Shown in pieces: positions 33,333 through 34,688 of a stretch of 64,000 nt of DNA. The translations under genes were made by a program, and so were the position numbers. The DNA lies in assembly GCA_951406725.2 (NCBI GenBank), contig OX597816.1, positions 97,774,001 to 97,838,000 of the forward strand. The letters run 5' to 3'. Numbering within the stretch: position 1 is the first letter of the stretch; each line of letters opens with the position of its first letter. The notes beneath the pieces were generated by a model. It was given only the letters and a program-made list of their open reading frames with translations, was not told where the DNA came from and did no database searches. The stretch comes from Octopus vulgaris. Its lineage: Eukaryota.

Positions 33333-33452
33333 ATAGCTGATCATGTAATGGAAAAATGGAGACTAGCTACCCCGGTGGGATGAAGTTAAAATAGTAGACA
33401 GAGAACACCACTGGAAAATACGAAAACTAAAACATGCAGCCCTAAAGGCCTA
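33333..33452 (+). pseudogene. PLE GIY-YIG endonuclease C-terminal remnant
   Basis: Translates, with one frameshift and one stop, to IADHV/WKNGD*LPRWDEVKIVDREHHWKIRKLKHAA. Confidence 0.8.
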
Positions 33453-33475
33453 AGATTCACTCCATGATTGCCCAC

Positions 33476-33541
33476 GGGCATATGGCATAGTGGTTAAGAG
33501 CTACTAACCTGAAGATTCTGAGTTTGATTCCAAGCAGTGAC
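33476..33541 (+). promoter_or_regulatory. tRNA-derived Pol III internal promoter (SINE-like head), not a complete tRNA
   Basis: A box TGGCATAGTGG at 33483-33493 and B box GAGTTTGATTCC at 33520-33531, with one CpG-type change. Confidence 0.7.
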
Positions 33542-33544
33542 ATG

Positions 33545-33743
33545 AATAATAATAACAACAACAATACTACTACTACTACTACTACTACTACTACTACTAC
33601 TACTACTACTACTACTACTACTGCTACTACTACTACTACTACTACTACTACTACTACTACTACTACTAGTAATAATAATAATAATAATAATAATAATAAT
33701 AATAATAATAATAATAATAATAATAATAATAATAATAATAATA
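33545..33743. repeat. (AAT)n-(ACT)n-(AAT)n microsatellite
   Basis: Read directly from the sequence. Confidence 0.95.
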
Positions 33744-34302
33744 AATGCCCTGATGCAGTACCAGGCAGTGGCTCTCATGACTTCTGATCTTAACTGATTG
33801 GAAGTGTTATCATGTACATTGTTTTGTCTTGGTATAAAAGATGGGCTACAGCAAATATTCTGCTCAATACCACAGATTTGCTTGTCAGTTGTTTGACCGT
33901 AACCAGTTGAGCATGTCCCTTAGTGGCTGACGATATGTGCATCTCTAATCACAAGCAGAAGTAGTGGGGGAGTATTATAGCCATGTGTTGAGAGGGATTT
34001 TTGGGGGTTTGAATGATTCACCTCTGGAAACATGGGTGTTTCATTCAACATCCTTAAACAACCCTTAATCAGGGATCTTTTGAGTGGGATGGGTTACCCA
34101 ACCAGAAGAAAATTTTAACTGGGCCCCACCCGCAAAGTCATGCGCTGTTTATCTTGATATGGGATCACCATGTCGCACACATATGGCTGTGATGCATGTA
34201 CCTGGTGTACCCTTATCAGACGGGTAGTCATGATGGGTATACTTGGGCTTCGTATATTTGTACCCCAGTGTCACTTTGATGGCATGCATTGCTTTCTCAC
34301 TC
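33744..34302. mobile_element. ~560 bp non-coding element inserted within (AAT)n
   Basis: A relatively GC-rich block flanked directly on both sides by long (AAT)n, with no TIRs or credible ORF. Confidence 0.6.
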
Positions 34303-34446
34303 AATAATAATAATAATAATAATAATAATAATAATAATAATAATAATAATAATAATAATAATAATAATAATAATAATAATAATTATACCAACAACAACAT
34401 CGAAAAGTACCTTAAGAATGAGAACCCAGTTTTGAAATTTCCCCAA

Positions 34447-34492
34447 GACACCTGATGAAGGCTGGAAGGTATATCAGCCGAAACGTTGTGTT
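34447..34492 (+). ncRNA. Intact minimal type I hammerhead ribozyme (PLE type)
   Basis: GACAC-CTGATGA-A-GGCTGG..TCAGCC-GAAA-CG-TT-GTGTT. Predicted cleavage after GUU at 34487. Confidence 0.88.
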
Positions 34493-34688
34493 AACAACAA
34501 AGATGAAGACAAATATCCGTCGAATGTAAATAATGTAAATAATGAGTATAATAGTTTATGAGAAATATAAAATAGATATGTACATTCATATGTGTAAATC
34601 TGAATAGTATTTGTGGTATTCACTCTCTGCATCTTATTGTATGACTATAAGCGATGCATAGTATGCCACGTCATTCATACTTGAAGAA

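Follow-up and report, generated by a model that had tools for sequence, protein, structure and literature searches.

Organization of the locus

The window, that is the whole 64-kb stretch of Octopus vulgaris DNA analysed here, contains a degraded copy of a Penelope-like element (PLE). In this copy the end of a PLE open reading frame (ORF), a tRNA-like head, a trinucleotide linker and a hammerhead ribozyme follow each other on the forward strand (Table 1). An initial annotation had described these four parts on one strand at about these positions, and both the sequence and the family alignment agree with it. For the linker, given there as (AAT)n, the agreement is partial: a trinucleotide linker is present, but to the left of an inserted repeat it is mainly (TAC)n, together with (TAA)n. 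The 'aatgtaaat' repeat tail described there is not a SINE tail; it belongs to the coding part of the ORF and lies at one of the two 3' end sites of the family.

Table 1. Features of the PLE copy in the window (positions are those of the window; L058 is a genomic copy and P0011 a full-length protein relative)
Feature	Position	Strand	Evidence or detail
5'-truncated PLE ORF end (C-terminal endonuclease region)	33332..33440	+	L058 alignment, P0011 identity
Deletion-spanning remnant and ~30-nt spacer (ORF stop to head)	33441..33475	+	Same spacer in GIY-anchored copies
Palindrome TGCCC-AC-GGGCA, head -7 to +4, putative RNA 5' end	33469..33480	+	Sequence
tRNA-like head	33476..33544	+	A box 33483-33493, B box 33520-33531
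(AAT)n linker, left part, with (TAC)n and (TAA)n expansions	33545..33744	+	Sequence
~559-bp non-coding repeat inserted in linker	33745..34302	+	Four T4+ runs
(AAT)n/(AAC)n linker, right part	34303..34397	+	Sequence
20-nt leader and PLE ORF start; 3' limit is the tail-less end site	34398..34543	+	ATG at 34418
Minimal type I hammerhead inside PLE ORF start	34447..34492	+	Stem I 34447-34451/34488-34492; CTGATGA 34452-34458; stem II 34460-34464/34475-34479; GAAA-CG-TT 34480-34487; predicted cut after 34487

The head and the ribozyme were called by motif reading and family comparison. Neither Rfam (with gathering thresholds on the window and in E-value mode on the region and six loci) nor ARAGORN detected a tRNA or a hammerhead at this element. 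Pfam did not call a GIY-YIG domain in the window ORF fragment, and with the relative P0011 it gave only an E-value of 0.23. Compared with L058, the ORF end carries a 1-nt insertion at 33347 and a premature stop, and a deletion of approximately 97 nt after it has removed the last codons. The residues encoded by 33367-33450 are identical to P0011 (residues 794-817, its C-terminus) at 16 of 24 positions. The YIG half of the GIY-YIG motif reads YKG in this family (L058:1270-1794) and in the relatives P0004, P0011 and P0014.

Every element of the window hammerhead agrees with the family majority. The rest of the copy has decayed: the B box has a C>T change at 33525, 6 nt are deleted between the two boxes after 33499, and the ORF start has a private stop at codon 6 and a T4 run at 34430, one of five T4+ runs that precede the hammerhead. 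Because of the B-box change, the deletion, the T4+ runs and the codon-6 stop, the copy is predicted to be dead and to give no Pol III transcript running from head to ribozyme; the activity envisaged for it in the initial annotation is thus not retained. The copy belongs to the tail-less 3' end class and extends 144 nt upstream of the head. No inverted partner was found within the 64-kb window, and no flanking repeat was seen by eye.

The repeat inserted in the linker has 6,758 exact 20-mer matches, and its copies are in a single orientation and mostly full length. Since 16 of 20 sampled copies lie within AAT arrays and only one within this PLE, it is a separate, AAT-targeting repeat, presumably carried along by a LINE of the Dong/R4 type that targets AAT. 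Its 5' end also builds a tandem array of ~68-bp units elsewhere (G000:C1:30148150-30148999). The window contains further repeats: pieces that we take, from their motifs, to be a broken mariner-like transposase (36565-37350, +), a 211-aa open frame presumed to be the end of a CR1/L2-type LINE reverse transcriptase (38777-39412, -), copies of further short repeats of tRNA type that contain A/B-box-like motifs (35380-35990, +; 38092-38206, -; 30128-30210) and tandem repeats with periods of 94 and 115 bp (13706-13878 and 14360-14651).

An abundant PLE family with a tRNA-like head

The association of head and hammerhead is a family trait and not a chance nesting. A 20-mer located 3' of the hammerhead has 7,481 exact matches in the genome and a 25-mer at the head start has 1,395, compared with none for either reversed control. 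The 20-mer is exact in just nine of 47 independently anchored copies, which leads to an estimate, with a wide error, of roughly 39,000 arms in the 2.8-Gb genome. The adjacency count proposed in the initial annotation also bears out the association: the hammerhead segment lies downstream in 23 of 30 head-anchored loci.

Within the family, the order is ORF end, spacer of ~30 nt, tRNA-like head, (AAT)n, ATG, hammerhead, tail and ORF body. When loci are anchored at the GIY-YIG ORF end, the head comes next in 29/30 and the hammerhead segment is present in 26/30; when anchored at the head, the PLE spacer is found immediately upstream in 6/30. In four runs that carry four other organism labels, contigs likewise span this spacer-head junction.

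The element is of the Penelope type, with one ORF coding for a reverse transcriptase (RT; YVDD; RVT_1, E-value 1.4e-10) and, C-terminal to it, a GIY-YIG-type endonuclease (EN). The C-x-C...H...H (CCHH) motif is present in translated long copies, and relatives of 830-850 aa are found at 43-58%. No Zn-finger was detected between RT and EN in the linkers of the long-copy translations. Such a finger, according to the available text of PMC8557442, marks Neptune and Nematis and is absent from Penelope and Poseidon. The domain order, the CCHH endonuclease and the linker without a Zn-finger therefore fit a PLE of the Penelope/Poseidon type, as judged from the translations. Pseudo-LTR hallmarks are also present (hammerhead, partial tandems, inverted arms and an optional tail of 30-40 nt), and locus L231 holds an almost complete monomer, about 2.6 kb long.

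At 35 places the 3' tail of the unit continues directly into the ORF body, and an ATG located 34 nt upstream of the hammerhead core opens the PLE frame. The resulting N-terminal peptide is identical to the N-terminus of P0011 at 39 of 85 positions (12 of 22 for the window piece). The 'ribozyme segment' thus corresponds to roughly 51 codons at the start of the PLE ORF, and the head and (AAT)n occupy the place of the 5' UTR or promoter. In summary, this is an abundant Poseidon-type PLE with a tRNA head ahead of its start codon as a family trait. No paper on this family or on a tRNA-headed PLE was found in the literature, but it may be included in Repbase or Dfam, in the repeat library of PMC13282606 or in the supplements of the retrozyme preprint cited below.

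The head as a candidate Pol III promoter

The best match of the head is with host tRNA-Arg (z 8.5 for Arg(TCG) and 7.5 for Arg(TCT), compared with 6-6.7 for Thr, Cys and Ala), within a limited sample of 30 fetched host tRNA loci representing nine isotypes. The initial annotation proposed that a PLE pseudo-LTR had captured a Pol III promoter. A tRNA-derived head is indeed fixed in the family; Pol III transcription itself we infer, mainly from the positions at which insertions end.

These 5' ends were determined at loci around the first 96 of 100 listed matches of the 20-mer, all on contig C1. They provide 96 arms preceded by 900 nt or more of upstream sequence; after merging of eight head-to-head pairs, these represent 88 insertions (L160, L161 and L164, which have a common flank, were left unmerged in this count). 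The farthest 5' extent is in the hammerhead segment for 18 insertions, in the linker for 15, inside the head for five, at -14 to +15 of the head start for 38 and farther upstream for 12; only nine attain at least 140 nt upstream of the head. Of the 50 that reach the head, 38 therefore stop at its start, which makes the stop rate there 16-fold higher than within the head and farther upstream (p = 5e-22, for an interval chosen post hoc). Since most copies reaching the head stop there, the head is likely to be a Pol III promoter. In 84 pooled non-ORF heads, a set selected for a complete head, ends are found mainly at -7/-6 (23) and at -1 to +1 (25), and overall the end positions are scattered across about 30 nt rather than falling on one base. 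Longer RNAs must also exist, given the 144 nt upstream of the head in the window copy and the 12 insertions with ends farther upstream.

We consider it probable that short copies are driven by Pol III from the tRNA head, and that a coding PLE in this way spawns SINE-like copies of its own tip. The main alternative is an ordinary PLE transcribed by Pol II. In that case the head would be the relic of a SINE, fixed as a fragment in the pseudo-LTR of a master copy, and the 5' pile-up would arise because the palindrome or the tRNA-like fold stalls the RT or joins cDNAs. The palindrome coincides exactly with the pile-up, and for this reason the start of transcription is not fully separable from a structural stop; moreover, 53 of the 88 insertions have an inverted partner, and short and ORF-linked copies have alleles and age in common. 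However, the pile-up remains among insertions without an inverted partner (7 of 11 stop at the head start). It is also seen in same-strand jumps: in three of 30 tail-to-body loci (L243, L244 and L248, the first two possibly duplicates), the sequence passes from ORF body to head position -6 around 1514-1830 of the oriented loci. We interpret these jumps as template switches made at the 5' end of an RNA; a same-strand upstream repeat beyond -8 is absent from all 30 loci. In addition, no comparable stop is observed at the hammerhead stem or the tRNA arms, and the A and B boxes match the consensus in the family majority, both still fitting in 60 of 127 heads. Taken with this evidence, the Pol II explanation appears unlikely.

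Two further observations bear on the choice. Conservation of the A and B boxes among copies (0.958 and 0.959) does not exceed that of neighbouring sequence (0.950), which is expected after insertion yet gives Pol III no support. Three RNA-seq runs with a related label contain 6,873-10,035 reads from the family, 67-72% of which extend into unrelated sequence. They show no start or end peaks, as the Pol II explanation would have it, although unstranded fragmented libraries such as these cannot show starts.

Possible Pol III transcription of the whole element

A broader version, in which the entire coding Penelope is a Pol III unit driven by the head alone, terminators have been purged from the 2.6-kb sense strand and every tip gives SINE-like progeny, is more doubtful and we put it forward only tentatively. 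No T4 run is common to copies on the sense strand across 67 kb of aligned copies, compared with 28 shared A4 runs. The expectation is 5.4 from base composition and 2.7 from a codon-aware synonymous shuffle (p about 0.07). G4 runs are also low in the element, the TTC/TTT bias of Phe codons per site is not significant (12 versus 6, p = 0.31), and other long frames in the loci, a loose control, have T4 counts near expectation. No second PLE family was obtained as a control for T4 runs: all 30 fetched matches to the Anolis protein belong to this Penelope family. T4 depletion is therefore only a hint of whole-element Pol III transcription.

Short copies and SINEs

The short copies could also constitute a classical SINE that has its own masters and took its 3' end from the start of the PLE ORF, with ORF-linked copies resulting from nesting or recombination. 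Such a SINE could account for the proportion of insertions that begin at the head (38/88, about 43%) and the few (9/88) that reach at least 140 nt upstream. By the SINEBase definition, the short copies resemble SINEs in being shorter than 700 bp and non-coding and in having a tRNA-derived head (the unit is about 270 nt plus linker, with the PLE ORF start as its body), but a LINE partner with a simple-repeat 3' tail is replaced by ends at two PLE-type ORF sites and inverted arms. The head is also present in 29/30 ORF-end copies, non-CpG divergence is similar in the 36 ORF-linked (5.3%) and 56 short copies (4.5%), and the two main non-CpG polymorphisms, at A63 and B58, segregate in the ORF-linked copies as they do in the short ones. 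The only differences between the groups are a weak one at the 9-nt repeat (p = 0.02) and one at a CpG site (p = 0.01), both uncorrected. A classical SINE is thus quite improbable. The shared alleles and age, in a small sample, indicate that the short copies are no separate SINE lineage, and the independent lineage suggested in the initial annotation finds no diagnostic non-CpG site apart from that of the 9-nt repeat.

Ohshima and Okada reportedly described the octopus SINE families OK, OR1 and OR2 in 1994. Identity of the present unit with OR2 was considered and dropped: OR2 is called a CORE SINE in the available text of PMC4758252, whereas the body of this unit is PLE-coding.

Role of the hammerhead

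The ribozyme suggests another route, that of the non-LTR retrozymes: tandem transcription, cutting by hammerhead dimers, circularisation and re-insertion. The hammerhead is indeed of the minimal type I and of PLE origin, 37 of 98 copies retain an intact core, as does the window copy, and the sole polymorphic non-CpG site of the core is the free N7 position. In five of 96 arms the start lies no more than 3 nt from the cut. However, all five adjoin another palindrome, and because of this palindrome beside the cut such starts do not prove cleaved templates. No arm (0/96) ends at the cut, contrary to the earlier idea that self-cleavage defines the inserted unit. Same-strand hammerhead pairs occur in only five of 85 loci, compared with 37 for opposite-strand pairs. 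With a pattern that counts tailed junctions, a single tail-to-head junction was found genome-wide versus 35 tail-to-ORF junctions. This speaks against circular RNA produced from tandem copies, as had been suggested, and the lack of tandem arrays largely refutes the retrozyme route, which we regard as highly improbable; a self-cutting circular RNA is unlikely. The near-cut arms are in L132, L135, L141 and L177, and one of them starts exactly at the predicted cut.

By analogy with hammerheads that, like this one, lack loop III (PMC4209133, available text), cutting is predicted to need a dimer or the help of a protein.

3' ends, inverted arms and a proposed insertion cycle

The arms have two classes of 3' end, ~25-32 nt apart, at about positions 140-149 and 173-174 of the segment. 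Among 71 head-to-head pairs (from 149 loci), exactly one arm is tailed in 60, where 35 would be expected (p = 1e-9). A direct repeat of at least 7 nt is present at the outer ends of 42/71 pairs, some by chance. These two end sites, the inverted arms and the flanking repeats bear out the earlier proposal that the PLE machinery mobilises the unit. In the PLE PAc of Anolis, as far as the available text of Frangieh et al. 2024 (PMC11167929) describes it, two internal start sites generate the tail and the protein, a predicted dimer, cuts both strands; the hammerhead is protein-assisted and is dispensable for insertion in vitro.

The following cycle may be proposed. Transcription would start at about -6/-7 of the head and extend some 150 nt into the ORF. 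By analogy with PAc biochemistry, the protein would bind the ORF start and begin reverse transcription at two internal sites, so that neither a poly(A) nor a defined RNA 3' end would be required. Both target strands would be cut and primed, one from each site (twin priming), and the two cDNAs would then be joined end to end, perhaps with the help of the 5'-terminal palindrome of the RNA. Fold-back of a single cDNA is disfavoured since it would not alone place the arm ends at two different fixed sites. The hammerhead is a predicted passenger in this cycle.

Comparison with known systems and significance

In the available text of PMC11167929, PAc resembles the octopus family in its single ORF (RT followed by a C-terminal GIY-YIG-type domain), in a hammerhead that overlaps the ORF start (the PAc ORF starts inside it), and in two 3' end sites defining a tail of ~30 nt, partial tandems and inverted 5'-truncated arms. 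The octopus family differs by its tRNA head and (AAT)n before the start codon and by its 5' pile-up; no head is mentioned for PAc in that text. The minimal hammerheads of metazoan PLE pseudo-LTRs are similar (short stem I, an extra base before stem II and no loop III), and also occur as dispersed single or opposite-strand copies. As monomers they did not cut, and the available part of that report describes no Pol III head (Cervera and De la Pena 2014, PMC4209133).

Schistosoma Sm-alpha and Sj-alpha likewise have a Pol III-type promoter followed by a hammerhead but, in the available text of PMC6765202, are tandem and ribozyme-released, whereas in the octopus family tandems are nearly absent, ends are at PLE start sites and the head belongs to an autonomous element. 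The TRIMp3 elements (Cassandra, Helenus and Ajax) carry a small-RNA-derived Pol III promoter in their terminal repeat, for which Kojima (2024) proposed an origin by SINE insertion; they are non-coding LTR elements with LTRs unlike those of the autonomous partner, while in the octopus family the head is part of the coding element. The usual assumption is that autonomous retrotransposons depend on Pol II, as is stated for the LTR partners of TRIMp3 (available text of PMC10886601 for all these points). Non-LTR retrozymes are also non-autonomous, related to pseudo-LTRs and equipped with a type I hammerhead, but tandem units define them, and the available preprint text includes no tRNA, Pol III, promoter or octopus (Li, Clavereau and Pollet, bioRxiv 10.64898/2026.07.22.740005).

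The tens of thousands of short two-armed insertions constitute a large natural record of the second-strand integration step of PLEs, and the rule of one tail per pair makes the twin-priming model directly testable in the published in vitro system. SINEs are by definition Pol III units mobilised by LINE enzymes. A tRNA-headed coding PLE would show how SINE-like units may originate when the partner is a Penelope, since internal initiation makes a tail unnecessary. If the entire element were in addition transcribed by Pol III, an autonomous retrotransposon and its own SINE would be combined in one element.
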